A stretch of DNA of 64,000 bases from a virus, in the IMG/VR virus record IMGVR_UViG_3300042892_004373, positions 1 through 64,000 of that record. The stretch is one strand, 5' to 3'. Numbering within the stretch: position 1 is the first letter of the stretch; the number at the start of each line of letters is the position of its first letter. Below are positions 9,460-49,497 of this stretch, in pieces. Position numbers and translations under genes: made by a program. The notes beneath the pieces were generated by a model. It did no database searches, was not told the origin of the DNA, and saw nothing but the letters and a program-made list of their open reading frames with translations.

Positions 9460-10095
9460 TTATTTTGTTGTTAAAATTAATCTGTCGATTCCAAGTGCAA
9501 AACCAACCCCACCTTCATAAGAACCACCACCACAAATTTGTTTTTGTGCTCCTAATTCTGGACATGAGATTTCAAATCCTTTACCACCTTTGTAGTAGTC
9601 AAGTCCTCTTGTTGCATCTAAGTTTACTTCATAGTTATCAGTTGCTAATTCAATTAGTTTAGTTGCGATTTCTAACATTTCATCAGTCATATCTTGAGTT
9701 GGGTTGATTACTTCAACTCCGAATTGCGTGAATTGTCTGTATCTACCAGCTTGTGGTTTTTCACCTCTAAAACATTCTCCAATATAGAATAATTTAACAT
9801 TCTTAGTCATTTTAAATGTTTCGTTTGCAAGTTGTTGAACAACTGCTGTGTATTCTGGTGCTAAGCAAATGTCTCTGTTACCTCTATCAGTAAAAGTATA
9901 CATCATGTTGTTATTTTCTTCACCTACTTTACTAGCGAATGTTTCAGTTAGTTGAATAACTGGGATCATCATTTCTTGATAACCATAAGATTCCATAATC
10001 TCGATCATTTGATTTAGTAATCTTCTTTTGTTTCTGGCAGTTTCACCAAAAACTATCCTCGTACCTTTGTACGTTTTACTTGTCTTTATCTCCAT
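9460..10095 (-). CDS. hisS: Minimal histidyl-tRNA synthetase (catalytic core only)
   Basis: Class II motif 2 FRGEKPQAGRYRQFTQFGVE, RGLDYY, GGG.Y, motif 3 GFALGIDRL; stops 5 aa after motif 3. Confidence 0.85.
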   Translation of the reverse strand: MEIKTSKTYKGTRIVFGETARNKRRLLNQMIEIMESYGYQEMMIPVIQLTETFASKVGEENNNMMYTFTDRGNRDICLAPEYTAVVQQLANETFKMTKNVKLFYIGECFRGEKPQAGRYRQFTQFGVEVINPTQDMTDEMLEIATKLIELATDNYEVNLDATRGLDYYKGGKGFEISCPELGAQKQICGGGSYEGGVGFALGIDRLILTTK

Positions 10096-10120
10096 TTTAA
10101 TAATATATTTTTTGTTTAAT

Positions 10121-10240
10121 AAAAAAGCCCAGATCATTATAATCTGGGCTTATGTTTAAATTAGCAATTTTTAAGACATATACTTACGACCCAGATTTCT
10201 CTGTGTGATGATGTAGTTTATATGTTGTTTTCATTTTCAT
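10121..10240 (-). promoter_or_regulatory. Histidine attenuator: leader MKMKTTYKLHHHTEKSGS (10184-10240) plus terminator (10121-10152)
   Basis: CAT CAT CAC run; leader AUCUGGG is complementary to the terminator 5' arm CCCAGAU; TATATTTG box at 10245-10252. Confidence 0.85.
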
Positions 10241-10287
10241 ACTGCAAATATATTACTTTTTATTTTATTATACAAATAAATTTTATT

Positions 10288-10671
10288 TTATTGGACATTT
10301 ATATTTTGTGGTAGTGCTAAGAAACCACCATATAAGTTATACCCTATATAAAAATTAAAGGATATACCACTGGTATTTGGTGTTAAAGTAAATGTGCCAC
10401 CTAATGTGCCACTCCCATCAATATATAGCTGAATAAAACTATTATCTATATTTTCAACAAATTGATTTGCTCTACTAAATGAAGGTGATGTACCATCTAT
10501 CCACCAGTAAAGAAATGTACCTTCTGAAACTCCAGATATACCACTTATAGTAAATGTTATTGTACTACCTTGTGTTGGATTATAGTTACTTGCCACAAAT
10601 GTTGGTTGTGAAGGTGGAGGAGGTGTATTTCCATCTCCTGTAAAACTTGTTCCTATTATTGATTGTATCAT
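10288..10671 (-). CDS. Putative virion structural protein (beta-rich)
   Basis: Gly/Ser/Thr-rich, follows the fibre gene, TAATATATA upstream. Confidence 0.5.
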   Translation of the reverse strand: MIQSIIGTSFTGDGNTPPPPSQPTFVASNYNPTQGSTITFTISGISGVSEGTFLYWWIDGTSPSFSRANQFVENIDNSFIQLYIDGSGTLGGTFTLTPNTSGISFNFYIGYNLYGGFLALPQNINVQ

Positions 10672-10771
10672 ATTTTATTTTTTATTTTTTATTTGCTATT
10701 ATATATTATTTTTAATAAAGAAGCAATTGTTATTAGACAATTGCTTCTTAATTTTATTAGTTTTTCTATTT

Positions 10772-19085: not shown

Positions 19086-19925
19086 ATAAGGGGCTGAGAT
19101 TATGCCATCTTGTAAGAATCTTTTGAAGAATTATTGTTTCTCTTCGTATCCACAATCTTTTGGATTGTAATTCTCATTGAGGATTAGTTAGACTAATCAC
19201 TTCTTGAGGCTTCAACTACTCTCTTATTACTCAACTCTCTTCAAACTTGCGGTCTGATTAAGGGTTCGACCCCTTAGAGGTTTTTGGCAAGAATACGTCT
19301 CAACTTGCGATCTTGACGTGCACTGGACAACCCAGTACTATGTACTCAACTTTCGTTGAAGCCTGACAGACACTTTTGCTTTTTATGTTTAAATTTTACT
19401 TCAAATGTAAATTGCTTTTGTGTTCGTGGATGTGTCGAAGAAGTGGTCTGCCGTAAGCTTCGTTATCTTTTGAACAACGAAATACTAAACTCCTTCGTGA
19501 AGCCTCCCAGCCTCCATATTTTAAGACAACTTCAAACTAACGCCTTGGTAGACATTTAGTAGGGATAGTAGCAGCACCACCTGTTCTCTACCATTACCTT
19601 TCGGTTTTAAGTTACCTTTTATATTGGAAGTCGCAATCATATAGTTGGAGCCATATTTCTTGCAAAAATCCTATGAGTTATTCTTATTGGTGTTCCCACC
19701 TCAACCGGACAATCCACATTGCCACGATTACTCAACCACTTTTTCTACAGTGTTACCCTCGATACTGAAGGTTGAGTAATATCTCACTTGTGTACTCGAG
19801 CTCTTACGAGCCGCAGAACCATTTAACGTTGATTCCACTTTAGCCTACTTTCGTAGTTTATTTAACGACGATACACCGCCGATTATCATTTTACTAGCCA
19901 CCGAAGTGATTAGTTGGATAATACA
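19086..19925 (-). ncRNA. Large structured ncRNA, GOLLD-like (boundaries approximate)
   Basis: ~840-nt GC-elevated region with no credible ORF, many GNRA/UUCG hairpins, own TATCTTTG box (19967-19974), next to a tRNA cluster. Confidence 0.65.
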
Positions 19926-20135: not shown

Positions 20136-20232
20136 TAGTCTGTACGGGATTCGAACCCGTGTGACCAGCCGCCCCGAAGGACCGCTACCCGTCCTGACTC
20201 ACCGAAGTGAGTATCCGCTAGACGAACAGACC
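20136..20232 (-). ncRNA. tRNA-Glu-bodied RNA copy 1 (D-loop hairpin insert; anticodon arm capped by UUCG)
   Basis: GGUCUGUUCGUCUAGCGG...AGGAC...GGGUUCGAAUCCCGUACAGACUA. Confidence 0.8.
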
Positions 20233-20263
20233 GATAAGTAGTTGCCTACCTAGGTTTTATTTG

Positions 20264-20352
20264 TAGTCTGTACGGGATTCGAACCCGCGTTACCTCCTTC
20301 GAAGGGAGAAGTCCTGACTCACCGAGGTGAGTATCCACTAGACGAACAGACC
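20264..20352 (-). tRNA. tRNA-Glu-bodied RNA copy 2 with UCG (Arg) anticodon and D-loop insert
   Basis: Stem UCUCC/GGAGG, loop CUUCGAA; insert ACUCAC-CUCG-GUGAGU. Confidence 0.75.
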
Positions 20353-20442
20353 GAAGTGTCGTGTTTTGATTACACTAAAGATGAATACTTGTATAAGAAG
20401 TACCAACTTGTCAACATTACAGAAATGACATTTACACTTTAG

Positions 20443-20515
20443 TAGCGGGAGAAGGACTCGAACCTCCGACCTTATGGTTATGAGCCACACGAGCTACCAA
20501 CTGCTCTATCCCGCG
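20443..20515 (-). tRNA. Initiator-type tRNA-Met(CAT)
   Basis: CGCGGGA 5' end with C1xU72 mismatch, loop CUCAUAA; only two G-C pairs at the base of the anticodon stem. Confidence 0.9.
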
Positions 20516-20526
20516 ATATTTTATTG

Positions 20527-20642
20527 TAGTCTGTACGGGATTCGAACCCGCGTTCCTCTCTCGTGACTAAGAGAATGTCCTGTTTACTTTACTTTAATGC
20601 CGAGGCTTTTTGTTCAGTAAACGTCCACTAGACGAACAGACC
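20527..20642 (-). ncRNA. tRNA-Glu-bodied RNA copy 3 (long D-loop insert, 8-nt anticodon loop containing GUC)
   Basis: Same acceptor, D-stem and T-arm; insert closed by GUUUACU/AGUAAAC. Confidence 0.75.
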
Positions 20643-20764
20643 GAAGAGTTGTGCTACGTTTCTTACACCACGAGACGACATTTCAGCCACCACCTACTCT
20701 TATTTTGTTTGACAAAGATACGGTGACTTTTTTAATCTACCAAATCTTTTTTCAATTTTTTTGA

Positions 20765-20901
20765 CCGCATTGAGGGAGTCGAACCCAAATATAAATACAT
20801 TTACTAGTATTTATATTTATAATAACAAGATTAGAACCCATCCCGACTTCATACTAGAATATTAAATTATTATCTAGTTTACTAACTACTTGTTCAACGC
20901 G
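20765..20901 (-). ncRNA. Expanded tRNA-like RNA with possible CUA anticodon and long variable arm
   Basis: 8-bp acceptor CGCGUUGA/UCAAUGCG, G73, GGG-UUCGACU-CCC T-arm, loop UUCUAAU, 12-bp AU-rich variable hairpin. Confidence 0.55.
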
Positions 20902-20908
20902 AATGTTG

Positions 20909-21013
20909 TAGTCTGTAAGGGATTCGAACCCATGTTTACAATCTCTCCATATACCAGGATATTTGAGATTGTCGTCCTATTACCGAAGTAATATACCGCT
21001 AGACGAACAGACC
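20909..21013 (-). ncRNA. tRNA-Glu-bodied RNA copy 4 (UUCG D-loop insert, extended arm with no canonical anticodon loop)
   Basis: Insert UAUUAC-UUCG-GUAAUA; arm ACAAUCUC/GAGAUUGU. Confidence 0.75.
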
Positions 21014-21081
21014 ATTTTATTTTTGTTTGACAAAGATACGGTGACTTTTTTAATCTACGAAATCTTTTTTAATTTTTTTTG

Positions 21082-21168
21082 TGGGAAGAGAGGGATTCGA
21101 ACCACTCGAAGATATATAATCGACTACCTCACCGGTAGCCTACTTTAACCAGGCTTGTATATCTCCCC
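21082..21168 (-). tRNA. Atypical class II (Leu-like body) tRNA with anticodon loop CGGUGAG
   Basis: Acceptor GGGGAGA/UCUUCCC, A73, variable hairpin GAU-UAUAU-AUC, bulged T-stem. Confidence 0.65.
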
Positions 21169-24371: not shown

Positions 24372-24433
24372 GATTTTATAATTTATACAAATGTAATCAT
24401 TTAAAATTAAAAAAACCACTCAAAGTGGTTTTT

Positions 24434-25848: not shown

Positions 25849-25878
25849 AAGTCTTACATTTCTGTAAGACTTTTTTTA

Positions 25879-36776: not shown

Positions 36777-36898
36777 TGAAAGATATATTCGTAATGAAAT
36801 CATATAGTGAAGCCGCTAAACGACTTAAAAAATTAGCAAAACGAAATATGAGAGTACTTTTAAGAAAAGAAAAAATAAAAAAGATATGCCAGAATTAG
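36776..36898 (+). CDS. 40-aa basic peptide (RKEKIKKI near C-terminus)
   Basis: ATG overlaps the upstream TAA; below the ORF-track cutoff. Confidence 0.4.
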   Translation: MKDIFVMKSYSEAAKRLKKLAKRNMRVLLRKEKIKKICQN

Positions 36899-37692
36899 CA
36901 GAAGTGAGAATTATGAGTGATTATATAAATCATCACTCAAATAAAAGAAAATTTACAAAATTATATCACGTTGAAAAGGGTAATAACCCAATCGACTCTG
37001 AACTAATTGAAGATTTCGAAGTAATTGCAAATTCTTTTGGTAAAGAATTACAATTAAAAACAACAAATGGAATAAAAACATTAGACTTCTCTGTATTTAT
37101 GGGGATGTCTGGTAATTGGAAATTTGTTCCTACTGAAAATTGGAATGATACCAAGTTTGTTAGAATGAGAATTGATACTGATGATGGTAATTCCTTATTA
37201 CTTTATGGTTCATATATGGGACCAAGATATAGATTAGGTGCATTTACTGGTGTAAAAAGAGGACCAGATCCAACCAAAGAATTTGATAAATTTAAAAGTA
37301 ATGTTTTAGATAATTTAAAGTTGAAGGCTTTTGATAAACCAATTTGTGAAGTTCTTTTAAATCAAAAATACTTTAATGGAATTGGTAATTACTTACGTTC
37401 TACAATTCTTTATTACATAAACGTAAATCCTTTTGAGTCTGCAAGAAATATTATTATGGAAAACCCAGATATATTAGATTTCTGTAGAGACGTTCCAATT
37501 AAAGCTTATACCTTAAATGGTGGTCAACTTTCAGACTGGACAAATCCATTTGATTCTGATTATGAAGAATTTAAGAAGTGGGTATTTTATCAAAAAGGTT
37601 TATCTTGTAGAGATAATACTGGTAGAACTTTCTGGTATGATGATAAATGGGAGCCTTATTCCATATATAAAAGTAAAAGTAAAGGTAAATAG
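36886..37692 (+). CDS. Fpg/Nei DNA glycosylase, NEIL1-like
   Basis: N-terminal MPE, GKEL, GMSG, H2TH FNGIGNYLRSTILY, zincless finger DNTGRTFW. Confidence 0.88.
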   Translation: MPELAEVRIMSDYINHHSNKRKFTKLYHVEKGNNPIDSELIEDFEVIANSFGKELQLKTTNGIKTLDFSVFMGMSGNWKFVPTENWNDTKFVRMRIDTDDGNSLLLYGSYMGPRYRLGAFTGVKRGPDPTKEFDKFKSNVLDNLKLKAFDKPICEVLLNQKYFNGIGNYLRSTILYYINVNPFESARNIIMENPDILDFCRDVPIKAYTLNGGQLSDWTNPFDSDYEEFKKWVFYQKGLSCRDNTGRTFWYDDKWEPYSIYKSKSKGK

Positions 37693-37877
37693 TGAAGATT
37701 GAATTTGATAAGAATAATTATGTAGTTTGTGAAGGAATTACCTTATCTTTAACGAGAGAACAGGTTATGGATTTACAAATGTATGGTTATGATCCTCAAA
37801 ATACTATTGAGGAATTCTATAGAAATAGTAAAGCTTATATTAGAGATCAAAAGATTGATTTGCTACTAAAAAAATAA
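37692..37877 (+). CDS. Hypothetical protein with RDQKIDLLL tag
   Basis: Coupled ORF. Confidence 0.6.
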   Translation: MKIEFDKNNYVVCEGITLSLTREQVMDLQMYGYDPQNTIEEFYRNSKAYIRDQKIDLLLKK

Positions 37878-37903
37878 AGAGAGACTTTCGTCTCTCTTTA
37901 TTG

Positions 37904-38746
37904 TTAGTCTTGTAATTCAAGTTGTTCTTGATTTTGTTTTTGAAGTAACTCCATAGCTCTTGCTAATCTTGTTAAACCAATTCCTGCACCAAATCTTGGA
38001 AAGAAGTCAAATTTTAAGAACTCTTCTAGTTCTGCTTCTACTCTTTCTTTTCCAAATAATTCAAATAGTTTTTTAGAATATCCACCATTTTCTATTGTAT
38101 AGAACATTTTTCTCATAGATTCAACATCACAACTTCTTTCTGCAGCGCCTATTGTTTCTTGTCCATATAATATTATATCAACTTTATTGAATATATCATC
38201 TTTTTGATTTTGCATGTTCCAAAATGGATTAGTTCTTAGTGGAAAGTTTTGAAGAGAAACACAATGACTTACTTCATTCCACATTTTAGTTTCATGTTCA
38301 TTTTCTAAAATTGATACGTCTCCATATTCTTTACAAGTTTTGTTGTAGTCCATTTCAACAGGTAAACCAAATCCTAAATACTCAAGAAGTTCTTTTTCTA
38401 ATAGAATTAAGTCTTTATATTTACCTTTTGATTCAAATTCAAACATTGGAAAGATTAGTTCATGTCTTCCAGGAATTGGATTTTTTTCTGCTCTGTAACT
38501 TGTAGATATACAAAAAACTCCATCCCAAGTAGGGTTTTTTAATAATTCATACTCGAGCCACATTTGTCCTGTTTGTGGTAACGGCCATATCTCACCATTG
38601 TATTCAAAAGTTGATACTGAGTGTGGGTTTTCACAAGCTGCTAAAATTGATAGTCTTGATTGTGTTGGTACTTCTACGAAGTTTTTTTCCAAAAAAAATT
38701 CTCTTAGTTTCTGAACTAGAGAATTGTACATTAAAGTGTTTGTCAT
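37904..38746 (-). CDS. AsnRS-like catalytic core (class IIb, no OB domain); possibly asparagine synthetase-like
   Basis: FVEVP, LPQTGQMWLE, SYRAE..RH...FEFE, GAGIGLTRL. Confidence 0.78.
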   Translation of the reverse strand: MTNTLMYNSLVQKLREFFLEKNFVEVPTQSRLSILAACENPHSVSTFEYNGEIWPLPQTGQMWLEYELLKNPTWDGVFCISTSYRAEKNPIPGRHELIFPMFEFESKGKYKDLILLEKELLEYLGFGLPVEMDYNKTCKEYGDVSILENEHETKMWNEVSHCVSLQNFPLRTNPFWNMQNQKDDIFNKVDIILYGQETIGAAERSCDVESMRKMFYTIENGGYSKKLFELFGKERVEAELEEFLKFDFFPRFGAGIGLTRLARAMELLQKQNQEQLELQD

Positions 38747-38851
38747 ATAAGATTTTTTTTTTAACCAAAAAGTAAAAACCTTTGATTAAAAAATTATTCT
38801 TGATATATATAAAAAAATCCACTCTTGTTTAGTGGATTTTTTTAATTTTTT

Positions 38852-39190
38852 TTATGTCAATAGATCTATTTTTAAATCTCTTCTATTTTCTATGGTATCA
38901 TATGTAGCTTTTTGTGTAAACCAATCATGTACAGTATCAATATCTGTTCTATGATAATCTAACCAACAACCTTCGATAGAACTATACCTCATAAACTTTG
39001 TAAGTTCTTCACTACTATATTTCTTTAGTTTCATTTCTCTGATACGATTACCTTCTAATGTAATTATTATACCATCGTCAGTTATGTCTAAAATTCCTAA
39101 CCAAAATGTTAGCATTTCTTGAAATATCATACCTTTCTCAAATAGTCCATTAAAAACTATTTCGTTTGTTTTATCGTTTGTTTTACTCAT
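38852..39190 (-). CDS. Hypothetical protein with RRDLKIDLL tag
   Basis: TATATTTG at 39207-39214. Confidence 0.65.
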   Translation of the reverse strand: MSKTNDKTNEIVFNGLFEKGMIFQEMLTFWLGILDITDDGIIITLEGNRIREMKLKKYSSEELTKFMRYSSIEGCWLDYHRTDIDTVHDWFTQKATYDTIENRRDLKIDLLT

Positions 39191-39225
39191 ATTTATTTAT
39201 ATAAAACAAATATACAAAATAAAAG

Positions 39226-39612
39226 TTAAACTCCAATAGAATTTAACTTTTCGTTTCTAAAATAAGAAATAAGTTTTTCTGATAATAATTCAAATGCTTT
39301 TATTTCAAAATCTTCAAGCTTAGATACTTTATATCTTAATGAGTTACCTGAGTTTTTCTTTGTAAGTAGTTCTTTATAGATTTGTACCATTTCTTCTTCT
39401 GTTGGTTCTATATCTTCTTTGAATTTAGAAAAATCTAATTGAGAAATATGTGTACTTTTGTGATATAAATCCTGTGTTAGTTCTGCTGAAATTATACCTG
39501 ATAATCTAATAAATTGATTACTCGAATGTTCATAAAAAATTGCACATAAAGTGTTTTTAATTGATTCTTCTTGATAAGTAATCTTGCAATTGATTAGAGT
39601 GGAGTTTGTCAT
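39226..39612 (-). CDS. Hypothetical protein with RNEKLNSI tag
   Basis: 128-aa ORF. Confidence 0.6.
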   Translation of the reverse strand: MTNSTLINCKITYQEESIKNTLCAIFYEHSSNQFIRLSGIISAELTQDLYHKSTHISQLDFSKFKEDIEPTEEEMVQIYKELLTKKNSGNSLRYKVSKLEDFEIKAFELLSEKLISYFRNEKLNSIGV

Positions 39613-39657
39613 TTTTAAAGTTTATTTTTATATATTTCAAATGATTATTTGTTTTCG

Positions 39658-40128
39658 TTAAATTTTGATAAAGATAAAGGTATAATACCTACGACCATTA
39701 GAATCTTGTTTTATTGAAATGCCAAAGTTTGTGAAATTTCCTTCAATTATTACTTTGTGTTTCGGAGAACTAATCCAAGCACTTAAAACAGATTGACTAC
39801 TAATGTAATTATATGCTATAACTTCAGATACACGTTCTGCGTGTAATGTTTTAACTAGGTTATCTGCTCTTTGTTGAAAATAATCATGTGTCATTGTATC
39901 ATGTTCTATCATGTAATCATTATGTTGTGAACAAATATAAGCAGTATGTTGATTTGATTTTAATGTATCTAACCCAATACTATTTCTATAAACATTTGTA
40001 ACGTGCATTACTGCAGTTTCTTGTTGACTAAAATTATAGGGATATTGAGTATAGATTTCTTCATCTTGTGTTTTAGAACAAGATATGAGTAATAATGAAA
40101 TAAAAAGTAGAAGTATTTTTAGTTTCAT
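39658..40128 (-). CDS. CAP/SCP-domain lipoprotein (paralog of 7298-7753)
   Basis: Lipobox LISC; HNDYM, W..SPKH. Confidence 0.82.
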   Translation of the reverse strand: MKLKILLLFISLLLISCSKTQDEEIYTQYPYNFSQQETAVMHVTNVYRNSIGLDTLKSNQHTAYICSQHNDYMIEHDTMTHDYFQQRADNLVKTLHAERVSEVIAYNYISSQSVLSAWISSPKHKVIIEGNFTNFGISIKQDSNGRRYYTFIFIKI

Positions 40129-40149
40129 TATTTATATATTAAAAGAGGA

Positions 40150-40410
40150 TTATTCCTCTTTTAATATATTTTTTAATGTTTCTTCTCTTTTAGTTGCTAA
40201 TTCCCAAGCTAAGTAGTCTTCTTCTGACATTAGTTCAGATTCTTTGAAGAGTGAACTTCTTTTTCTATCCAAATAATCATATTTGTATTCACAATCATAT
40301 TGATTTTCTGTATCTGGTTCATCCAAATTAGCTTCAATATATCGTTCAATAATCATTCTACCATAAGATTTATGATAAACGGATTTATTAAGGTCAAATT
40401 TATTTCTCAT
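40150..40410 (-). CDS. Hypothetical protein with REETLKNIL tag
   Basis: TAACTTTG at 40415-40422. Confidence 0.65.
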   Translation of the reverse strand: MRNKFDLNKSVYHKSYGRMIIERYIEANLDEPDTENQYDCEYKYDYLDRKRSSLFKESELMSEEDYLAWELATKREETLKNILKEE

Positions 40411-40461
40411 TTTACAAAGTTACATTTAATTTTTAATATATACAAAAAAGTAATTTTTATA

Positions 40462-41157
40462 ATGAGATTTCTACAAAAGTTTAAGATATTTGAATCAACA
40501 CAAGAGTTACCAGAATTTGGTACAAAGTGGATCAATGATAAAGGTGAAAAAATATTTATATTAAGACCAGATCAGTATGGTAATATTGGTTATTATAACT
40601 TATCAAATCCAGAACATAAGTGGCATATAAAACCTACAAATTTTTATACTGAGTATAAACCATTAGATAAACACATTTATAGAGATGATATTGAATATGA
40701 TTTTGATAAAGCGGTTTATTTATCAGATGAGAGAGCAATCATTGCGGCTTATTTTATAACTAAAGAGAATGAAAAGTCTATTGAAATTCTAAATATAAAA
40801 GAATTTGCTGCTGATACTGCTACTTTTATGGATAATGCAAGACCTTATTCAGTTACTTTTCACAAAGGTACTTTACCGACTTCACAAATTGCTATTTTAG
40901 GAGAAGTTCCTGAAAAAGAAGGATTTTTCTATGTTAAAGTTCCTTATTGGTTATATAAGGAAAATCCAGAGTTAAATATTAAAAGAATCATTGGTGATTT
41001 TCATCATATGAAAAGATTAGATCTTAGAGATTATAGTTTACGTAATAGTGAATTGATGTCTAATTTCAAAGATCCTAATGTAATTAAATACTTTGCTAGT
41101 TCTGATAAAGATAAAAGAACTCAACAACAAGTGATAAATTACGGACGTCGTTCATAA
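40462..41157 (+). CDS. Hypothetical protein with MRFLQKFKIFE tag
   Basis: Start moved to ATG 40462; TAATATATA at 40434-40442. Confidence 0.7.
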   Translation: MRFLQKFKIFESTQELPEFGTKWINDKGEKIFILRPDQYGNIGYYNLSNPEHKWHIKPTNFYTEYKPLDKHIYRDDIEYDFDKAVYLSDERAIIAAYFITKENEKSIEILNIKEFAADTATFMDNARPYSVTFHKGTLPTSQIAILGEVPEKEGFFYVKVPYWLYKENPELNIKRIIGDFHHMKRLDLRDYSLRNSELMSNFKDPNVIKYFASSDKDKRTQQQVINYGRRS

Positions 41158-41630
41158 GTTAAATATGTAAAGTCATATTTGTGTCTTTCATCTACTGGAT
41201 GGTATTCTTCTTTAACTAATTCCCATTCTTCACCAATTTCTGGAAAGAAAGTATCTGCTTCAAAATCTGAATGTACTCTTGTTAGTTCAATTCTATCTGC
41301 TATTTCGATAGATTGTTTGTAGATTTCTCCACCACCAATTATCCAAATATTATTATCTGAAAATTCTAATACTTCGTCTAATGCAGATTGAATACTATCA
41401 AATGTGAAACATTTTTCTGGTACTTGATAATCTTCCTGTCTTGTTATAATTAGGTGTGTTCTATTAGGTAGAGGTTTAGGGAACGTTTCAAACGTCTTTC
41501 TACCCATAAGTATATGATTACCTGATGTAAGTTCTTTAAATCTCTTAAAATCGTCTGGTAAGTGCCACACTAAATCGTTATCTTTTCCAAGTGAGTTATT
41601 TTCTCCGGCTGCTGCTATAATTGTTATCAT
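41139..41630 (-). CDS. folA: Dihydrofolate reductase
   Basis: WHLPDDFKRFK, MGRKTF, LPNR, IIGGGEIY, ADTFFP. Confidence 0.96.
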   Translation of the reverse strand: MITIIAAAGENNSLGKDNDLVWHLPDDFKRFKELTSGNHILMGRKTFETFPKPLPNRTHLIITRQEDYQVPEKCFTFDSIQSALDEVLEFSDNNIWIIGGGEIYKQSIEIADRIELTRVHSDFEADTFFPEIGEEWELVKEEYHPVDERHKYDFTYLTYERRP

Positions 41631-41659
41631 AGATATTTTATGATAAAAAAGTAAAAAGT

Positions 41660-42181
41660 TTAATCTTCTGGTATTGGGGAAATGTCACAGTTATTACTAA
41701 ATGTAAACTTGATACACTCGGTGGTTGTAAAGAAAATACTATCATAACTAGAACTAGAAGGAATTGAATGTATTGATAAAGTTACATATTTATAATCTGT
41801 TAGTCTTAGTAATTTAATTGCAGATTCAAATCCTATGTAACGAAGATACTCTTGTTCTTTAGGAATTTCATAGTTTTTCTTTCTCCAAACATTACCATAT
41901 TGAAATCCTGTATAATCTCCATTTCTTTCGATACTGGTTACTTGTAAAATCCATCTTCCTCTGTCACGTGGGTCTGCACGTCTATTCTGGTCTGCACTTA
42001 GTTCGTTTTTATTAGTATCACATCTTCTAACAAATGAAATCATACTCATTTGAGAATTAAAGTTAAATGTAGATGCATCTCCATTAAAAGTAAAACCTTC
42101 ATCCAATATTTCTAATACTGAATAAGTTATATCTTCTTCTGTGAGTTGTTTAGACTCATTAAATTTCTTTAGGTATATCAT
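41660..42181 (-). CDS. Hypothetical protein with MIYLKKFNE tag
   Basis: 173-aa ORF. Confidence 0.65.
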   Translation of the reverse strand: MIYLKKFNESKQLTEEDITYSVLEILDEGFTFNGDASTFNFNSQMSMISFVRRCDTNKNELSADQNRRADPRDRGRWILQVTSIERNGDYTGFQYGNVWRKKNYEIPKEQEYLRYIGFESAIKLLRLTDYKYVTLSIHSIPSSSSYDSIFFTTTECIKFTFSNNCDISPIPED

Positions 42182-42184
42182 AAT

Positions 42185-43585
42185 TTAATTACATTCGTAA
42201 CAGTCAACTCGACCACTACCTCCACATTCATCACATTCTGATGTTCCATCTCCATCACATCTAGTACATTCTTCAAGTCCTTTACCATCACATTCAGTAC
42301 ATTCTACTGTGCATTCTCCGTCACATTTATCACAAGTTGATCTACCATCACCATGACAATCATCACAAGATACTTTTCCTTTTCCTTCGCAATCAGAACA
42401 TTCTTCACCTTCTTCATCAGTTCCATCCCCATTACAAGTTTCACAATCTACTTCACCATATCCATCACAAGAATTACACTCTACTTCACCATCTCCATCA
42501 CATTTTGGACAGTTCTCTGTTCCAGATCCTTCACATTCTCTACATTCTTGTTCTCCAGAACCATCACATCTGTAACATTCTCTTTCACCGCCACCGCCAC
42601 ATTCTTCACATTCAAAACTACCTCTTCCACCACAGTTATCACAAGAACCATCACCACCTTCAGTACTGGTTAGTTCTGCATCATAACTAGAGTTATAATT
42701 AGTAGTAAGTTTTCCATCATCTTTAATAAGATATTTTAGAGTGTCCATATAAGGATAATCATCAAAGTTTGAATTTTCTAGTGTAACAATAACCCAGCTA
42801 TCTTCCCTTTCAAGTTGTTCTCCATTGAACATAATAGGATCACCTGTATGGAATGTTTGATTCATTTTATAATAGAACCCATTTTCTTTTGCAAAGTCTA
42901 TAAATAGTTGAGTATCTGCACTATTTATAATATAAACTCTATCCATGAATTTTCTTCCTTTATCATCCAACCAAAGAAGAGCTCTACCGGTAATTTTATC
43001 TGGATTCTCTGCAGATTTTAGTATAATAAGTGATACTCTATCTGGATTATCTGAATAAATTGATAAGTAATTTTGACATTTAGCATATCTCATACAAGAG
43101 GAACCTAATGTTCCTAGTTCTTTATCGTAATTTTCAACATGATACCATTTTTTAATATCATTACCTTTAACTATTTCAAATCTTATAAACGCTTCTTTCT
43201 CTATTAAGATAGTTGCTTTATATTTACTTACGAAATCTTCAAGATCTTTTGGTTTAACTTCGATACCTGCTTTAGTTAGAATTGCTCTTACGAATCTACC
43301 AACATTCATGTCAGATTTTTTAATTGTTTTAGGATCTTCTACTTTTTTTGCTTTATCATCTGGTGTAAAGAATACTTTATCTTCTTTATCTACATCATAT
43401 GAAATATAGTTATAGTTAGTATCTACCTCTTCTCCGTTTAATTTTAATAATTCAGATGCAACTGGAGATTTTATTTTTTTCAATAAGTCATAAAACTTAT
43501 CATCAAGTACAATTGTTGCTTCCAATAAAAGCATCATGTCTTTTTCTAGTAAAAATTCGTCGTATTTTGATATTTTATTATTCAT
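42185..43585 (-). CDS. SCM-motif protein with long CxxCxGxG zinc-repeat tail (paralog 1)
   Basis: SSCMR, GRALLW, FMDRVY, YPYMDT, more than ten CxxC repeats. Confidence 0.75.
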   Translation of the reverse strand: MNNKISKYDEFLLEKDMMLLLEATIVLDDKFYDLLKKIKSPVASELLKLNGEEVDTNYNYISYDVDKEDKVFFTPDDKAKKVEDPKTIKKSDMNVGRFVRAILTKAGIEVKPKDLEDFVSKYKATILIEKEAFIRFEIVKGNDIKKWYHVENYDKELGTLGSSCMRYAKCQNYLSIYSDNPDRVSLIILKSAENPDKITGRALLWLDDKGRKFMDRVYIINSADTQLFIDFAKENGFYYKMNQTFHTGDPIMFNGEQLEREDSWVIVTLENSNFDDYPYMDTLKYLIKDDGKLTTNYNSSYDAELTSTEGGDGSCDNCGGRGSFECEECGGGGERECYRCDGSGEQECRECEGSGTENCPKCDGDGEVECNSCDGYGEVDCETCNGDGTDEEGEECSDCEGKGKVSCDDCHGDGRSTCDKCDGECTVECTECDGKGLEECTRCDGDGTSECDECGGSGRVDCYECN

Positions 43586-43602
43586 AGTATATATATTATG
43601 TT

Positions 43603-43851
43603 TTAGAAATATCTTTTGATATTTCCCACCTTGTCTATTAGAACATTTTTACCATCTTTTTTACGTACTAATATATCTGTTCCTGAAAATCTTGCTTCTA
43701 ATACTCCTTGTGATAAAACTCTTATTGGATTGCCTCCAATGTCTTTAGTTTCTAGTTTACCATCTATACTAGTTATTAAAAAAATTTTTTGTGATTCGTC
43801 ATATGTACCAAATGCAACATTCTCAGATATTCTTCTACCAAGGTTTCCCAT
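43603..43851 (-). CDS. Small beta-repeat hypothetical protein
   Basis: Internal G...R.I repeats. Confidence 0.55.
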   Translation of the reverse strand: MGNLGRRISENVAFGTYDESQKIFLITSIDGKLETKDIGGNPIRVLSQGVLEARFSGTDILVRKKDGKNVLIDKVGNIKRYF

Positions 43852-43930
43852 AGTATCACATATGTATAGTGATTGATTTAGTATTTTAAACATCATAACT
43901 TTTATATAATTTTATTATATATATAATAAT

Positions 43931-44077
43931 ATGGAAAAGAAAAATATATTTCTTTTATTAGATGATGAGATTGTAACACGTTATAAAGAACATCTAGATA
44001 AAGTAGGATATGATAAAAATAAGCTATTTGAAAGAATTATTATTGATTTTTTAAAGAAAAATACAATAAAGTCTTAA
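43931..44077 (+). CDS. Probable ribbon-helix-helix regulator (48 aa)
   Basis: KNIFLLLDDEIVTRYKEHLDKVGYDKNKLFERIIIDFL strand-helix-helix pattern. Confidence 0.5.
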   Translation: MEKKNIFLLLDDEIVTRYKEHLDKVGYDKNKLFERIIIDFLKKNTIKS

Positions 44078-44129
44078 AAAGGTACTTTTAGGTATTTTTT
44101 ATTTATATATAGCATTAAGGAAAATAATT

Positions 44130-44339
44130 ATGAGATACTTGAAAGAATTTAACGAAAATAAGGATGTATTCATGGAATACCTACTTGAGTTTACTGAGGA
44201 CGGTAAGCCAGAAGAGCTTTTTAATAGTAGATTAAGTAAATTACTTAGATTTGTGAGAGTGGAAGGTATTAAAAACTATACTATAAAAGGAACAACAAAA
44301 TCAGGAGAAACTAAATTAGTTTTAAAAATAGGAAAATGA
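44130..44339 (+). CDS. Small protein with MRYLKEFNE tag
   Basis: 69-aa ORF. Confidence 0.6.
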   Translation: MRYLKEFNENKDVFMEYLLEFTEDGKPEELFNSRLSKLLRFVRVEGIKNYTIKGTTKSGETKLVLKIGK

Positions 44340-44364
44340 AGAACCCACTCGAAAGTGGGTTTTT

Positions 44365-45333
44365 TTAATTCATATAATCTGTGAAAAATTGTTCAAAAAT
44401 AGCTTGCATTACCGGGATACATATTGAGTTTCCTGCTAAAGCTACGTGTTGTTTAGTTGATAAACTTGTAGTTAGTAAGTTATCAATGTCTGTATCTTTA
44501 ACTCCCATAAAACGATATCCTTCTCTTGCGGTTAAAGTTCTAATTTTCTTATTATCTAATATAATTTGTGGAGATCCTGATGTAGTTAGACAAGGCGAAC
44601 ATCCATCAATAGAATAAATTCGTCTGGCTTGATCATATTTTACGTCACTTCTACGGGCAGCTAATTTACAAACAGAACTTAACTTAGGTGTATTTATTTC
44701 ATAAGGTGGTGTAATGAATAAACTATTATCTACAATTGTTTCAACAAATTCTCTCATCGGAACTCTAGTTTTTTTATGATTATGAACACCCATCATTTTA
44801 TTAGAAACTTCTAAAGATGATTCTCCTAACACTGAAAACATGAAAACTCTCTCACGATTTTGAGGACATCCGAAGTCAGCACCATTAAGTACCATCCAAG
44901 CAGAACCATAACCTAAAGAGTTAAGTTTTTCAATATAATCGTTAAATTTTTTGATGTGATTTTTGGAAACTAGATTTTTAACATTTTCCATTAAAAGATA
45001 CTTTGGTTTATTATGTTCTACGATTCTTTCAACTTCGTATAATAAACCGCTTCGTGTTCCTCTTTCAATACCACGTTGTACTCCAGATATAGATATATCT
45101 TGACAAGGAAATGAATATGTTAAGAAATCACAATGTGGAAATGTTTTTTCGTCAACTTTTGAAACATCTCCTAAATTACCTTCTTCGGTAGTGTGTAAAG
45201 AGTCGTAAGCTTCATTTGCTGATTTAAGAATGTCACAATTTGCGACGTTACGGTATTTAATACCACTATACTTTAGTGCTAGTTCTTGAGTACCATACCC
45301 TGAGAATAGACTTATAATTTTTAATTCTTCCAT
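44365..45333 (-). CDS. DNA (cytosine-5) methyltransferase
   Basis: LFSGYG, FPCQ, ENV, PQNRERVF, AGNS. Confidence 0.92.
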   Translation of the reverse strand: MEELKIISLFSGYGTQELALKYSGIKYRNVANCDILKSANEAYDSLHTTEEGNLGDVSKVDEKTFPHCDFLTYSFPCQDISISGVQRGIERGTRSGLLYEVERIVEHNKPKYLLMENVKNLVSKNHIKKFNDYIEKLNSLGYGSAWMVLNGADFGCPQNRERVFMFSVLGESSLEVSNKMMGVHNHKKTRVPMREFVETIVDNSLFITPPYEINTPKLSSVCKLAARRSDVKYDQARRIYSIDGCSPCLTTSGSPQIILDNKKIRTLTAREGYRFMGVKDTDIDNLLTTSLSTKQHVALAGNSICIPVMQAIFEQFFTDYMN

Positions 45334-45363
45334 ATTAAATTATATGGAAGAATTAAAAAATGT

Positions 45364-45837
45364 TTAGTCTAAATGTCTAATATCTTTGTGTGATGACTTT
45401 TGTTTACCGTTGTGTGACCACAATCTTGCAAATGGTGTGGTGAAATAATCATTATAACATAAAGTATCATCAATATGTAGATCTATATTGTTTTCTTTAC
45501 AGTATTCTGCTTTTGTTGAATCCCATAGAACATCGTCAAATTTTTTCTGAATAGTTCCATCTGGAAATTCAATTTCTCCTAATGTTTCTGCGGTTTTTAA
45601 TAAGTGGTCATAAACTGAAAATTTATGTGTATAGTTTATACCACTTAATTGTTTTTCTAATTTGTCTGTCCATTCACCGCCAGTGATTACGTGAACTTCT
45701 CCCCCATTTTTTACAATAGAGTCTGCTAAAAATACAAAGAACTCTGGAAGTGCATCGATTACTCCGTGTATATCAATACCAATTTTGAATTTTGAGGTTG
45801 AACTTTCGTTCACTATACTACTAAATTTTGTTATCAT
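45364..45837 (-). CDS. HAD-like protein
   Basis: GIDIHGV, VITG, K...HIDD. Confidence 0.65.
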   Translation of the reverse strand: MITKFSSIVNESSTSKFKIGIDIHGVIDALPEFFVFLADSIVKNGGEVHVITGGEWTDKLEKQLSGINYTHKFSVYDHLLKTAETLGEIEFPDGTIQKKFDDVLWDSTKAEYCKENNIDLHIDDTLCYNDYFTTPFARLWSHNGKQKSSHKDIRHLD

Positions 45838-46240: not shown

Positions 46241-46599
46241 ATTCCTAATTTAGTTAAAATTTTATCTCTATAGAAACTTATATCATCGACAATAAAAAGG
46301 TTTGAATCTGTAATAATTAGATTATCAATAATCTCAATAATCTTTGAGGTTGTCTGCATTGGTATAAATCCAGATTGATAACTTGTAACTATTTGATTTA
46401 TTTCTAACAAATCTACCTTAGCAGTTTCTAGATGTACAATACCTTTACATTTTTGTAAAGAATATTTGTCTATAAATTCTTTATTATTTAAAATTTTTTT
46501 ATAGTATTTATTTTCAATATCTACCATAACATAGGAAACCTCAGTGGATTTACCACTGAGGTGATTATGAATTAAATCTCCTACTTTAGCCAATTTCAT
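46237..46599 (-). CDS. Hypothetical protein with RDKILTKL tag
   Basis: Operon ORF. Confidence 0.6.
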   Translation of the reverse strand: MKLAKVGDLIHNHLSGKSTEVSYVMVDIENKYYKKILNNKEFIDKYSLQKCKGIVHLETAKVDLLEINQIVTSYQSGFIPMQTTSKIIEIIDNLIITDSNLFIVDDISFYRDKILTKLGI

Positions 46600-47432
46600 T
46601 ATAGTATTTTATTACCAGTTTTTGAGCCTAAAACAACTGCGGGTGTACCATTTTCTAGTTCACCTGGCATAATCATTGCTTGTGACTCAATACCCATCAT
46701 TTTAACAGGTTTTAAATTTGTTACGAACAAGAAAGAGTATCCTTCTAATTTATCAACATAGTTCTCACCTAATGAAGATTTAATATTTGTTACAACAACT
46801 CTTGGTGTGTCTTCACCAAAGTCAACTTCTAACTTAATAAGTTTTTCTGATTTAGGTACATCTGTTACTGATATAATCTTTCCTGTTTTAATTTCTAATT
46901 TAGATGATACATCTAAAAATTCACTGAATTCTATTTTATCTTTCATGTTTAATATATTTATTGCTTTAATTTTACATTCTTCTTTTAATCCTGGAATTCC
47001 TAATTTCCAAGGTTTTACTGGTTCTCCTGTTGAACAATTTACAAAATAATCTTGTTGTTCATCTAAGAAATCTTGTATATCATCAAATATAACATACTGA
47101 GTTACTTCTGGGTGTCTATCTAACCAAAGTTTAATTTCGTGGCCTCTTTTTACTTGATCATAATAAACTATGTTGGTTGCTTCACATACATCTACGCAAT
47201 CTGGTGTTACATCAATAATTTCACCTGGTAGATTACGTTCTTTCCAAAGTGATAACATTCGTTCTATTCCTTTATCTTTCCAAGTTGAGGAGATAACGAT
47301 TTTTGCTCCTGTTTTCTCGATAACTTCCTTTAAGTTCTGGACGTACTCATCCCTGAAGATATGACCAAATTGGTCTTTATCTGCATAATCTACGTTTAAA
47401 ACTCCGTCAATGTCTAGAAATATCGTTTTCAT
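46599..47432 (-). CDS. HAD phosphatase (Swiss-Army-knife RNA-repair type) fused to a Trbp111/CsaA-type tRNA-binding OB domain
   Basis: FLDIDGVLN, ISSTW, RG.EI..WL, YVIFDD; then KLIKLEVDFG, NLKPVKMMGIESQAM. Confidence 0.82.
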   Translation of the reverse strand: MKTIFLDIDGVLNVDYADKDQFGHIFRDEYVQNLKEVIEKTGAKIVISSTWKDKGIERMLSLWKERNLPGEIIDVTPDCVDVCEATNIVYYDQVKRGHEIKLWLDRHPEVTQYVIFDDIQDFLDEQQDYFVNCSTGEPVKPWKLGIPGLKEECKIKAINILNMKDKIEFSEFLDVSSKLEIKTGKIISVTDVPKSEKLIKLEVDFGEDTPRVVVTNIKSSLGENYVDKLEGYSFLFVTNLKPVKMMGIESQAMIMPGELENGTPAVVLGSKTGNKIL

Positions 47433-47449
47433 AATGGCAAATATACAAC

Positions 47450-47692
47450 TTAGTTTTGATTTATTAAAAGAATTTTTTGATTTCTTGTTAGTTGTTTAAT
47501 TCTCCATTCTTCTTTTGCTGCCAAAGATTTTGTTTCAAAAGATTGTTGATAAACTAATTTTACTGGTGTTCTAGTCTTGGTGTACTTCGCACCTTTCTTC
47601 TTATTGTGTGTATCAATTCTCTTTTCTACGTCATTACTAATACCAGTATAATAAGTTAGGTCTGAACATTCTATTATGTAAACTTTCCACAT
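47450..47692 (-). CDS. GIY-YIG nuclease (UPF0213-like)
   Basis: VYIIECSD..YYTGI, KGAKYT, E.RIK. Confidence 0.85.
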   Translation of the reverse strand: MWKVYIIECSDLTYYTGISNDVEKRIDTHNKKKGAKYTKTRTPVKLVYQQSFETKSLAAKEEWRIKQLTRNQKILLINQN

Positions 47693-47778
47693 ACCTTATA
47701 TATTCACTTTCATGCAACATCATGATATATAACTAAATAAATATATAATTTTGGGTTTAAAATTTAATATATACTCTT

Positions 47779-48294
47779 ATGAAATACATAAAATTATTTG
47801 AAGATATAGTTCCTGCACATCAAAGTGGTTCAGATTATAGAAATAGAAACATTGATGAAACTGTTGATGTTACTACATTAGATACAATGTTATTAAGATC
47901 ACCGGTATATAATAAAGGTGAGATAATTATTTGGTCCGATAATGTAAAGAATAGAGATGTTGACTATGACTTTGCGGAGAAATTACTAAGAAGAGTAGGT
48001 CTTAAATTGATAGGAGAACCTTATGATGGTGGATTTTTAGTAAAATGTGAACCAGGAAAAGAAGAAGAGTCTGCAGAAAAAGTATTAGCTAGATTTCCTG
48101 AATTTTTTGATAGTTATGAAAGAGAAGATATAAGAATGCCTTTTATATCAAATAAAGTAGAAGAAATAAAGGATAAAGTTGAAGATATAGAAAGATTCTT
48201 TGAAAGTACTTTGAAGAAAAATGTAAATGTAACTAAATATAATAAGTATATTGATGATATTATTAAAGACCTTGATAATCTAAAAATAAAATAA
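47779..48294 (+). CDS. Hypothetical protein with MKYIKLFE tag
   Basis: TAATATATA at 47765-47773. Confidence 0.7.
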   Translation: MKYIKLFEDIVPAHQSGSDYRNRNIDETVDVTTLDTMLLRSPVYNKGEIIIWSDNVKNRDVDYDFAEKLLRRVGLKLIGEPYDGGFLVKCEPGKEEESAEKVLARFPEFFDSYEREDIRMPFISNKVEEIKDKVEDIERFFESTLKKNVNVTKYNKYIDDIIKDLDNLKIK

Positions 48295-48318
48295 AAAGTC
48301 CTTTTTCAAGGACTTTTT

Positions 48319-49497
48319 TTATACTTTATCTACTGGAAATAGTCCAATTTTTTTCATACCTATTTGTAAATCTGTCAATAAGTCAGAAAAAATCTTTTTG
48401 TTTACTTCATTATCTTTTATGTATAATTTCTCATACAATTTATTTATATTCTTACAATGATTTACTAAAGCATCGAATAATATATTCGGTGATAAATTAG
48501 ATTTGGTTTTTAATTCAGCAAATTCTAATTGTTTAGAATAGAAGTTTTCTTTATCTTGTACTTCAACACCACAGCTTTTAATATGTGCCATAGTATAACT
48601 TAGATATAAACCTAAAGATAACTTTGGATTACCAATCAATTTTGTATCTATTGACTTACTAGAAGTCGGTCCAGATTTAAGTATTTGTCCTGCAATTATA
48701 TTATAAACTAATTTTAAATCATTATTAAATAATGGTAATAAACTATTTATAAAATCAGTCATGTAAATAACATTACCTTCACTACTAGACATTTTCTTAC
48801 CATCTAATTGAACTAAGCCAAGACCAACGTGATTTGTAGTAGGAAATAACTTCTTTAAAGATTTAAAGTGATTATCTTGTTCTACTCCTGTTAGATATAA
48901 CGTAGAAGCATTTAATTTACTAGCTAGAGCTACATCTTGGTAGAAGTAAGAAGTAGAACCAGTACTTTTCACACCTACTAATTTCTCGTCTCCCAAATCG
49001 AAGATTTTAGAACCTTCATAAGTACCTTCACCTTCTTTTAATAAACTTTCATCTTGTAATTTCATTTCAGATGCAAAGAACATTTCATCTACATTATAGT
49101 TAAAATTTTTACAATACTCAAAATAAGATTTTAAAGCATCATCTTTTTGAACTGCTCCTTCTAAAGTATCACCAAAAATGACAATAAATTTATTACCGAC
49201 ACCTAATTTTTGAAAAGCATTTGCTAATACAAGGTTGGAAAAGTGACCAACGTGTAAATGTTTATTTAAGTTTGGACTAAACCCGTCAATATAATCATAC
49301 TTTTCAGGTTGATTAAACATATCAGAGATTTTTGTATCATCATTTAAGATGATGTTTGTGTATTTACCAGAATCTTCCGTTTTTAAATTCCAGTACTTAC
49401 ACCAATTTATAATTTCATCAGAGGGTTTTCCGAATACACAGAAGTTAAAACCTAAATCTGATGGAGTTGTCTTTATTTTATTTATATCTATTTTCAT
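48319..49497 (-). CDS. argS: Shortened arginyl-tRNA synthetase
   Basis: FSPNLNKHLHVGH, KSTG..SY..QD, EQ..HF, KMSS, YLSY; 392 aa. Confidence 0.8.
   Translation of the reverse strand: MKIDINKIKTTPSDLGFNFCVFGKPSDEIINWCKYWNLKTEDSGKYTNIILNDDTKISDMFNQPEKYDYIDGFSPNLNKHLHVGHFSNLVLANAFQKLGVGNKFIVIFGDTLEGAVQKDDALKSYFEYCKNFNYNVDEMFFASEMKLQDESLLKEGEGTYEGSKIFDLGDEKLVGVKSTGSTSYFYQDVALASKLNASTLYLTGVEQDNHFKSLKKLFPTTNHVGLGLVQLDGKKMSSSEGNVIYMTDFINSLLPLFNNDLKLVYNIIAGQILKSGPTSSKSIDTKLIGNPKLSLGLYLSYTMAHIKSCGVEVQDKENFYSKQLEFAELKTKSNLSPNILFDALVNHCKNINKLYEKLYIKDNEVNKKIFSDLLTDLQIGMKKIGLFPVDKV

Follow-up and report, generated by a model that had tools for sequence, protein, structure and literature searches.

We analysed a window of 64,000 nucleotides, the first 64 kb of the 73,060-bp viral contig IMGVR_UViG_3300042892_004373 from IMG/VR (completeness ~26% by CheckV), which carries on its minus strand five open reading frames (ORFs) homologous to aminoacyl-tRNA synthetases (aaRS). 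Pfam and NCBIfam assign each of the five proteins to its aaRS family, and all of them are shortened to 50-69% of normal length when the NCBIfam model lengths are taken as the reference (211 of 406 amino acids for His, 280 of 470 for Glu, 418 of 843 for Leu, 280 of 455 for the Asn-like protein and 392 of 569 for Arg). The five genes are as follows.

9460-10095 (the 225-amino-acid ORF reaches 10137), minus strand: mini-HisRS, 211 amino acids from Met15, with motifs 1-3, RGLDYY and GGGxY
25879-26721, minus strand: mini-GluRS, 280 amino acids, with HLGT and KLSKR, without most of the connective insert and without the anticodon-binding half
32294-33550, minus strand: mini-LeuRS, 418 amino acids, with HCGH, KMSKS and a zinc-finger-like CxxC...CxxC kept and no CP1
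37904-38746, minus strand: stand-alone class IIb (Asp/Asn/Lys-type) core, 280 amino acids, phrog_29758, closest to the AsnRS catalytic domain
48319-49497, minus strand: compact ArgRS, 392 amino acids, with a small N-terminal domain, a Rossmann fold (HVGH, KMSSS) and a short helical anticodon-binding domain

Each of the five belongs to a length-conserved viral family whose members lie mostly on huge-phage contigs of up to ~650 kb, and distinct family members show hardly any variation in the catalytic motifs or at the CP1 deletion junction. Ratios of nonsynonymous to synonymous substitution rates (dN/dS) were 0.066-0.152 in the 12 of 18 sequence pairs with a computable dS, which cover all five genes, the other 6 pairs being saturated. 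Judged by these comparisons, the five ORFs are genes under purifying selection. Four large relatives were searched alongside the contig, namely the uncultured phage LR745206.1 (634,780 bp), which is the best GenBank relative of the window (67% identity for mini-LeuRS and 84% for mini-GluRS), and three viral genomes with sizes of 518, 508 and 482 kb and completeness ratings of 97-100%.

The mini-HisRS begins at Met15 of its 225-amino-acid ORF, which is the start common to its homologues (MEIK...). Its residues 33-164 align to chain positions 25-163 of the PDB structure 5e3i and residues 167-216 to positions 258-306, and because the alignment skips the intervening part and ends there, we conclude that the protein has neither the insertion domain nor any part beyond motif 3. 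The window protein carries the His-specific RGLDYY and GGxxY motifs together with motifs 2 and 3 of class II enzymes; among 18 distinct members of the family, 17-18 retain motif 2, RGLDYY and motif 3. It matches PF13393 with 91 bits and scores 165.7 bits on hisS (TIGR00442, under the cut-off of 286.75) and, lower, 104 bits on hisZ (TIGR00443, under the cut-off of 271.65). The family is represented at 23 loci, with 20 complete ORFs of 205-258 amino acids and one more that runs off its locus; at E <= 1e-10 there are 2088 database relatives, the best 120 of which measure 209-236 amino acids. Exactly one HisRS-type gene per genome, in the mini form, was found in 5/5 genomes, the four large relatives included. 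In the relative L137, mini-HisRS has a pair of tRNA-His genes just upstream, one of which measures 90 nt. Since the main identity determinant of HisRS is G-1:C73, this enzyme could plausibly work without an anticodon reader.

At the place where CP1 is inserted, the mini-LeuRS reads QRNWLENQHDWCVSRQR, with QRNW and DWCVSRQR 6 residues apart; its helical domain is shortened and its C-terminal domain is absent. TIGR00396 is its best family (372.3 bits, under the cut-off of 548.4), and its best PDB match is 3ziu, a 637-amino-acid LeuRS (E 1.5e-77) that we take to be the naturally CP1-less enzyme of Mycoplasma mobile, which still charges tRNA but mischarges. The alignment crosses the CP1 place without a break, and 3ziu is the closest solved relative of the phage enzyme; the latter lacks chain 274-356 and everything past ~chain 481, parts which correspond to the distal helical domain and to the tRNA-binding domain at the C-terminus. 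Relatives were found at 30 IMG/VR loci (59-94% identity), and 29 of 31 ORFs are 410-442 amino acids long, one being 487 amino acids and one (L032) broken at 280. HxGH is kept in 27/27 distinct members and KMSKS in 24-26 of them. Arrays of 1-7 tRNA-Leu genes lie at most 3 kb upstream in 6/31 loci, and 21/31 loci are free of tRNA genes within 3 kb. Since bacterial LeuRS recognises its tRNA without reading the anticodon, the loss of anticodon-directed parts says little in this case. The class Ia set of LR745206.1 consists of IleRS, MetRS, a ValRS-like enzyme and mini-LeuRS.

For the mini-GluRS, alignment to 7k86 (475 residues) places residues 3-89 on chain 13-100 and residues 102-251 on chain 177-318, so that the phage protein has no counterpart of ~75 connective-insert residues or of the anticodon-binding half at the C-terminus. 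The protein matches PF00749 with 153.6 bits and proteobacterial-type GluRS structures at E ~1e-42, and it scores 204.2 bits on gltX_bact (TIGR00464, under the cut-off of 289.95) and 121 bits on GluQRS (TIGR03838, under the cut-off of 276.7). Complete ORFs, 23 among 25 loci, are 260-283 amino acids long, and KLSKR is kept in 15/15 distinct members and the His of HIGH in 13/15. The mini form is the sole Glu/Gln-type gene in genomes G004 (98% complete) and G010 (100% complete), and it is absent from G001, G002, G003, G008 and G009, which have full-length enzymes. Its identity to LR745206.1's full-length GluRS is no more than 24-33%, and we therefore regard the mini-GluRS as an independent lineage and not as a recent truncation.

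The class IIb core matches phrog_29758 with 324.5 bits. Its structural model (predicted local distance difference test, pLDDT, 88.3) aligns to the catalytic domains of AsnRS and AspRS only, with residues 1-270 corresponding to chain 244-531 of 8tc8 (the AsnRS catalytic domain) and no OB domain, and AsnRS catalytic domains are its best fold match (Z 27.4, 21-22% identity). Scores on curated models are low, 33.4 bits on AsnRS TIGR00457 (under the cut-off of 342.6) and 17.8 bits on EpmA/GenX TIGR00462 (under the cut-off of 286.9), and the NCBIfam AsnA models (NF005052-55), on which the true AsnRS and AspRS of LR745206.1 score 107-141 bits, gave no match to the core at E <= 0.01. The family comprises 680 clusters when E <= 0.001 is the threshold and 172 when it is E <= 1e-30, and most are 265-375 amino acids long. 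It also includes proteins of P-SSM2, P-SSM5 and P-SSM7, phages of Prochlorococcus in which the gene is annotated 'tRNA ligase', and of two other huge-phage records; in the region seen, nothing else in the cyanophage carriers is annotated as aaRS-like. With carriers in 3/12 huge-phage genomes tested, its distribution is unlike that of the other four genes.

The compact ArgRS is very divergent (32.6 bits on argS TIGR00456, cut-off 261.65). Its model, built on 28 sequences, reached a pLDDT of 92.3, and residues 1-392 align to 1bs2 23-607 with Z 27.0 and a root-mean-square deviation of 3.7 over 365 aligned residues. As modelled, the three-domain layout is kept, N-terminal and anticodon-binding domains included, and the enzyme is compact, not decapitated. 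It has 634 relatives, many with a precomputed PF00750 match, and 119 of the best 120 are 387-413 amino acids long. All five genomes (5/5) carry exactly one Arg-type gene, in the compact form, and no other PF00750 match.

These results bear on the sequence-only reading of this stretch, which had described five shortened ORFs at these positions with intact catalytic signatures, each stripped of anticodon-binding or editing parts. Family assignments and motif conservation agree with the general description. A HisRS of 211 amino acids ending right after motif 3 is borne out by the 5e3i alignment and the homologue start, a GluRS of 280 amino acids without the anticodon half and most of the connective insert by the 7k86 alignment, a LeuRS of 418 amino acids without CP1 by the QRNW/DWCVSRQR junction together with the lack of any PF08264 match in the contig, and an AsnRS-like protein of 280 amino acids without an OB domain by a model covering the catalytic domain only and the lack of any PF01336 match in the contig. 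The description fails for ArgRS, whose model aligns end to end with ArgRS structures and keeps the anticodon-binding domain.

The class IIb core is tied to a particular tRNA in other phages. ARAGORN called an 83-89-nt tRNA-Asn(GUU) directly 3' of the core gene in 30/59 loci and odd 99-103-nt tRNAs at the same spot in 5 further loci of the 59. In an alignment of 20 of these RNAs, the U33-G-U-U-U37 core of the loop is invariant, the acceptor stems covary, G73 is followed by an encoded CCA in 19/20, and the variable arm has ~11-30 nt. A covariance model found the tRNA(GUU) ~10 nt 3' of the core gene and on the same strand in 64/80 loci, a count that includes the 20 loci from which the model was built and one RNA cut by the end of its locus. 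In P-SSM2 (L167, locus 5786-5873) the tRNA starts 9 nt after the core gene (PSSM2_198). The loci with the adjacent tRNA are L050-L115, apart from L051 and L070, and L167, and core and tRNA form a candidate natural synthetase/tRNA pair. A core without an anticodon reader together with an odd-bodied tRNA is what the idea of anticodon-independent charging predicts. In the window itself, the core gene is followed 3' of its stop codon by a terminator hairpin and no tRNA gene, and the covariance model for the long-arm tRNA(GUU) matched in this contig only a tRNA-Met and, weakly at 23 bits, the RNA at 21079-21168. A hairpin with a T-run (TCCACT...AGTGGA, then T7) was also observed at 38790-38850 on the minus strand, ~75 nt before the ATG of the core gene.

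Further RNA genes and RNA-related or otherwise informative proteins of the window are the following.

9346-9416, minus strand: tRNA-Cys(GCA), 44 nt downstream of mini-HisRS, with the same layout in L116
17955-18992, minus strand: protein that carries a C-terminal sorting domain of type IX secretion (PF18962)
19091-19497, minus strand: full-length GOLLD RNA (324 bits), adjoining the tRNA/tRNA-like gene cluster
20136-21168, minus strand: cluster of tRNA-like RNAs next to GOLLD, candidate substrates, including a normal tRNA-Met
21079-21168, minus strand: tRNA-like RNA with a long variable arm and a loop, CGGUGAG, readable as GUG (His), with no ARAGORN call
23466-24419, minus strand: polynucleotide kinase-phosphatase, a tRNA-repair context beside mini-GluRS
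24689-25333, minus strand: RNA ligase, likewise a tRNA-repair context beside mini-GluRS
46599-47432, minus strand: 277-amino-acid fusion of an RNA-repair HAD domain (HAD_SAK_2) and a tRNA-binding OB domain (tRNA_bind, PF01588)
49949-50023, minus strand: tRNA-Met(CAU), upstream of compact ArgRS, with the same layout in L034 and L035

The tRNA genes that neighbour aaRS genes in the window are thus non-cognate, tRNA-Cys following mini-HisRS and tRNA-Met preceding ArgRS, and in LR745206.1 three tRNA-Gln genes precede the GlnRS gene. Against taking the RNA at 21079-21168 as a tRNA-His for mini-HisRS stand its G33 and A73, and a register providing G-1 would, on our own reading, cost U8. Several RNAs at 20136-21013 on the minus strand have an acceptor stem, D stem and T arm of the tRNA-Glu type in common, each with a hairpin inserted in the D loop. 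A strict form of this tRNA-Glu-like pattern occurs three times in this contig (G000), once in LR745206.1 (W01) and twice in G005, that is, in 3/8 genomes with mini-GluRS versus 0/9 without it (Fisher ~0.08 by our own estimate, confounded by kinship), and this co-occurrence is weak and serves as a lead only. Among relatives, ARAGORN reported long (82-90 nt) Lys, Trp, His, Asn, Ile, Thr, Met, Cys and Gln tRNAs beside normal-length copies, and short (74-75 nt) tRNA-Leu beside long ones; the loci with such odd lengths are L018, L026, L027, L123, L126, L127, L129 and L137, and the tRNA body types in these relatives seem swapped.

The four large relatives combine compact and larger synthetases. Their class Ia frames span 426-749 amino acids and their class IIa frames 215-430, and some of the class IIa enzymes hold an HGTP anticodon domain inside a frame of 375-405 amino acids. 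LR745206.1 encodes an IleRS of 735 amino acids with the editing region present, above its NCBIfam cut-off; essentially full-length GluRS (492 amino acids), GlnRS (532) and AspRS (454), all above cut-off; an AsnRS of 392 amino acids at cut-off; a MetRS core (457), a ValRS-like (443) and a GlyRS-like protein (246); and the mini Glu, His, Leu and Arg enzymes. From this mixture it follows that compaction is common in the clade and is neither universal nor always at the cost of the anticodon domain, and the systematic reduction proposed from the sequence is contradicted by the full-length GluRS, GlnRS and AspRS and the 735-amino-acid IleRS of LR745206.1. The accompanying expectation, that the missing domains are not encoded separately, holds for the contig and the four large relatives, where none was found free-standing. 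No Pfam aaRS-domain match was found at E <= 0.1 in the ten ORFs that flank the five genes, a search that highly divergent domains could escape; PF03129, PF08264, PF19269 and PF01336 have no match anywhere in the contig; and in the four large relatives PF03129, PF08264 and PF19269 occur solely inside longer aaRS ORFs (PF01336 was searched in the contig only). The tRNA_bind domain at 46599-47432 is the sole trans-encoded tRNA-binding domain found in the contig. We considered this protein as a trans-acting aaRS cofactor and read it instead as a tRNA-repair protein, because it is fused to an RNA-repair HAD domain.

The five aaRS genes are spread across 40 kb among unrelated metabolic and DNA-repair genes, and the metabolic and DNA genes of the window include those for adenylosuccinate synthetase, a PHO4 phosphate transporter, a ClpB-like ATPase, dihydrofolate reductase, a cytosine methylase and an Fpg-like glycosylase. 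As read from the translations, the part of the contig beyond the window codes for a topoisomerase subunit and for a protein resembling a large terminase. The GC content of the window is ~30%, TAnnTTTG-like sequences are repeated before its RNA genes, and 15 kb of it gave no match by megablast against GenBank phages. A type IX sorting domain and TAnnTTTG-like sequences are Bacteroidota-type signals, and we take the two together to suggest a Bacteroidota host. The stretch was found again in lake and other freshwater metagenomes, with at least 12 DNA runs holding half or more of the sampled words, and the source is a huge freshwater phage that probably infects Bacteroidota. Metatranscriptome contigs (2 runs, 2 studies) match mini-GluRS at 25956-26699 (2 differences) and 26164-26663, and the same two studies match other parts of 25800-45799 almost letter for letter. 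These contigs do not show strand or level and may reflect DNA carry-over, and we do not count them as expression.

Taken together, we lean towards reading the five ORFs as working genes of phage-specific compact aaRS lineages, in which the His, Leu and Arg enzymes would charge tRNA and the Glu and class IIb proteins would be accessory. Anatomy, conservation, selection and gene neighbourhoods are as observed above, and from them we infer activity, amino acids and mode of recognition, the proteins being most likely genuine minimal charging enzymes. The His, Leu and Arg enzymes would be the phage's only ones of their kind and would charge phage-encoded, and perhaps host, tRNAs during infection, these three having shed editing, insertion and accessory tRNA-binding modules. 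Recognition by HisRS would then depend on the acceptor end of the tRNA, that by LeuRS on its core and discriminator base, and that by ArgRS on the small N-terminal domain and the anticodon-binding domain which this enzyme has kept. As accessory paralogues, the mini-GluRS and the OB-less class IIb core would probably have special tRNAs or tRNA-like RNAs as substrates; both are uncertain members of the set and may act on special RNAs or in other chemistry.

Several observations weigh against this interpretation. All five proteins fall below the curated NCBIfam cut-offs of their own families, and the contig represents ~26% of a genome, so that full-length copies could lie elsewhere in this phage. 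Deletion of the C-terminal domain abolishes charging in E. coli LeuRS. As GluRS and ArgRS need bound tRNA to activate their amino acid, the loss of tRNA-binding domains is hard to reconcile with normal function in the mini-GluRS; two of its 15 distinct sequences have Gln for the first His of HIGH, the copies in L151, L153 and L161 reading MQIG there, and two of four near-complete carriers, LR745206.1 and G005, encode it together with a full-length GluRS, a coexistence typical of a paralogue with another job. Cognate tRNA genes adjoin neither mini-LeuRS, mini-GluRS nor the class IIb core in the subclade of the window, the 14 loci nearest to the window's core (L036-L049), plus L051 and L070, have no adjacent tRNA(GUU), and the covariance model found no long-arm tRNA(GUU) in G004 (98% complete), which carries the core.

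A first alternative, in which the ORFs would be functionless remnants of captured host genes in decay or assembly artefacts, could appeal to the fact that all five are far shorter than cellular enzymes and below family cut-offs, and to the homologue L032 broken at 280 amino acids. We give it almost no chance, given dN/dS of 0.07-0.15, deletion junctions and lengths that are fixed across dozens to thousands of relatives, the recurrence of the stretch in at least 12 DNA runs and confident models (pLDDT 92.3 and 88.3), and on these comparisons decay or assembly artefact is excluded as the origin of the five ORFs. A more substantial alternative is that some or all of the proteins are paralogues that do not charge tRNA and whose function stops at amino-acid activation or ligand binding, such as a HisZ-like regulator, a GluQRS-like enzyme placing glutamate on a modified tRNA base, an AsnA-like (archaeal AS-AR) asparagine synthetase, an EpmA-like protein aminoacylase, or a ligase feeding an amino acid into another pathway. 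The architectures do mimic stand-alone cores: GluQRS 1nzj (298 amino acids) is among the PDB matches of mini-GluRS, the fold of the class IIb core matches archaeal asparagine synthetase A (Z 24.4) and GenX/EpmA (Z 23.7) over almost the full extent of those two proteins, mini-GluRS is an extra gene beside full-length GluRS in two genomes, and the cyanophages carry the core without other aaRS-like annotation in the region seen. We nevertheless consider this explanation unlikely, since the proteins lie closer to charging enzymes than to the paralogues, in line with the sequence-only reading (hisS 165.7 versus hisZ 104 bits, gltX_bact 204.2 versus GluQRS 121 bits), HisRS motifs 2 and 3 and RGLDYY are kept in 17-18/18 members, the core has no AsnA match at E <= 0.01 and only 17.8 bits on EpmA, and the His, Leu and Arg enzymes are the sole ones of their kind in near-complete relatives. 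A tRNA(GUU) ~10 nt after the core in 64/80 loci is also hard to explain unless the core acts on tRNA.

A further alternative is a single, coherent anticodon-blind system that charges by the acceptor stem only and has co-evolved with the tRNA-like RNAs of the window and its reduced RNase P-like RNA, as had been proposed from the sequence. Part of the anticodon-independent idea stands, in that the His, Glu and class IIb proteins truly lack an anticodon-binding domain, whereas ArgRS keeps its own and LeuRS is uninformative; the proposed match to aberrant tRNAs likewise has a counterpart in the core gene with its adjacent tRNA(GUU) in 64/80 loci elsewhere, but no such neighbouring tRNA is present in the window's subclade. 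The restriction of the D-loop-hairpin pattern to mini-GluRS genomes (0/9 without the enzyme) and the swapped-body tRNAs near the enzymes in relatives also speak for such a system. However, the tRNA-Glu-like pattern is absent from 5/8 mini-GluRS genomes and confounded by kinship, compact and full-length enzymes are mixed in relatives, the genes are scattered over 40 kb among unrelated genes, and the class IIb core is distributed differently from the other four. We therefore think such a system improbable; its present support would consist of a single weak co-occurrence and of the analogy to the marine core and tRNA(GUU) module.

The compact lineages that we favour resemble known enzymes in part. 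HisZ is HisRS-like and without the C-terminal anticodon-binding domain, as is an engineered catalytic-domain fragment of E. coli HisRS, and the phage protein is shorter than both, with its insertion domain deleted too. GluQRS (YadB, 1nzj) is a ~300-amino-acid GluRS-like core without an anticodon-binding domain, from which the mini-GluRS differs in scoring higher as gltX_bact and in being without the connective insert. Archaeal asparagine synthetase A (3p8t, 3reu) and EpmA/GenX (3a5y) are stand-alone class IIb cores of ~290-325 amino acids, whereas the phage core is slightly nearer to AsnRS (Z 27.4, a gap of ~3 over AsnA) and is followed by tRNA(GUU) in most phages.

Phage-encoded synthetases as such are known. 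Huge phages have been reported with genomes that each encode up to 15 tRNA synthetases, proposed to charge phage tRNA variants (Al-Shayeb et al. 2020, PMC7162821), and the parts of that account available to us do not mention truncation or domain loss; jumbo phages are described, in the portion seen, as having no conserved aaRS complement (Iyer et al. 2021). The cyanophage P-SSM2/P-SSM7 'tRNA ligase' T4-GC 194, which belongs to the same family as the window's core (53-55% identity), has been listed as a sporadic host-like gene, and its entry, as far as seen, describes neither a function nor a link to a neighbouring tRNA (Sullivan et al. 2010, PMC3037559). A 2026 review states, in the part seen, that large phages took synthetases from their hosts, and nothing further. 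Open full-text literature, which leaves subscription papers and supplements outside the search, gave no account of phage synthetases being shortened, nor of a pairing between the core and tRNA(GUU).

Since cyanophages that carry the core and its tRNA(GUU) are in culture, the two can be tested directly as a possible natural orthogonal pair, and so can the part they play during infection. More broadly, large phages might carry natural orthogonal pairs in which synthetases without an anticodon reader are matched to body-swapped phage tRNAs, a tentative idea that we hold less probable than its contrary. The swaps in question would be a long arm on tRNAs with Asn, His, Lys, Trp and Met anticodons and a short-bodied tRNA-Leu; the clearest candidate would be the OB-less core with the long-arm tRNA(GUU), and the window's mini-HisRS, mini-GluRS and core might follow the same design. 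If true, such pairs would allow chosen codons to be decoded with components that go unrecognised by the host's enzymes and its tRNA-cutting defences. If the compact enzymes do charge tRNA, few natural synthetases for His, Leu, Glu and Arg would be as small; they would provide small parts for engineered translation systems, and would show how little protein an active site needs, which bears on the evolution of synthetases. Huge phages would then rebuild a slimmed charging apparatus of their own and would not simply carry copies of host genes.

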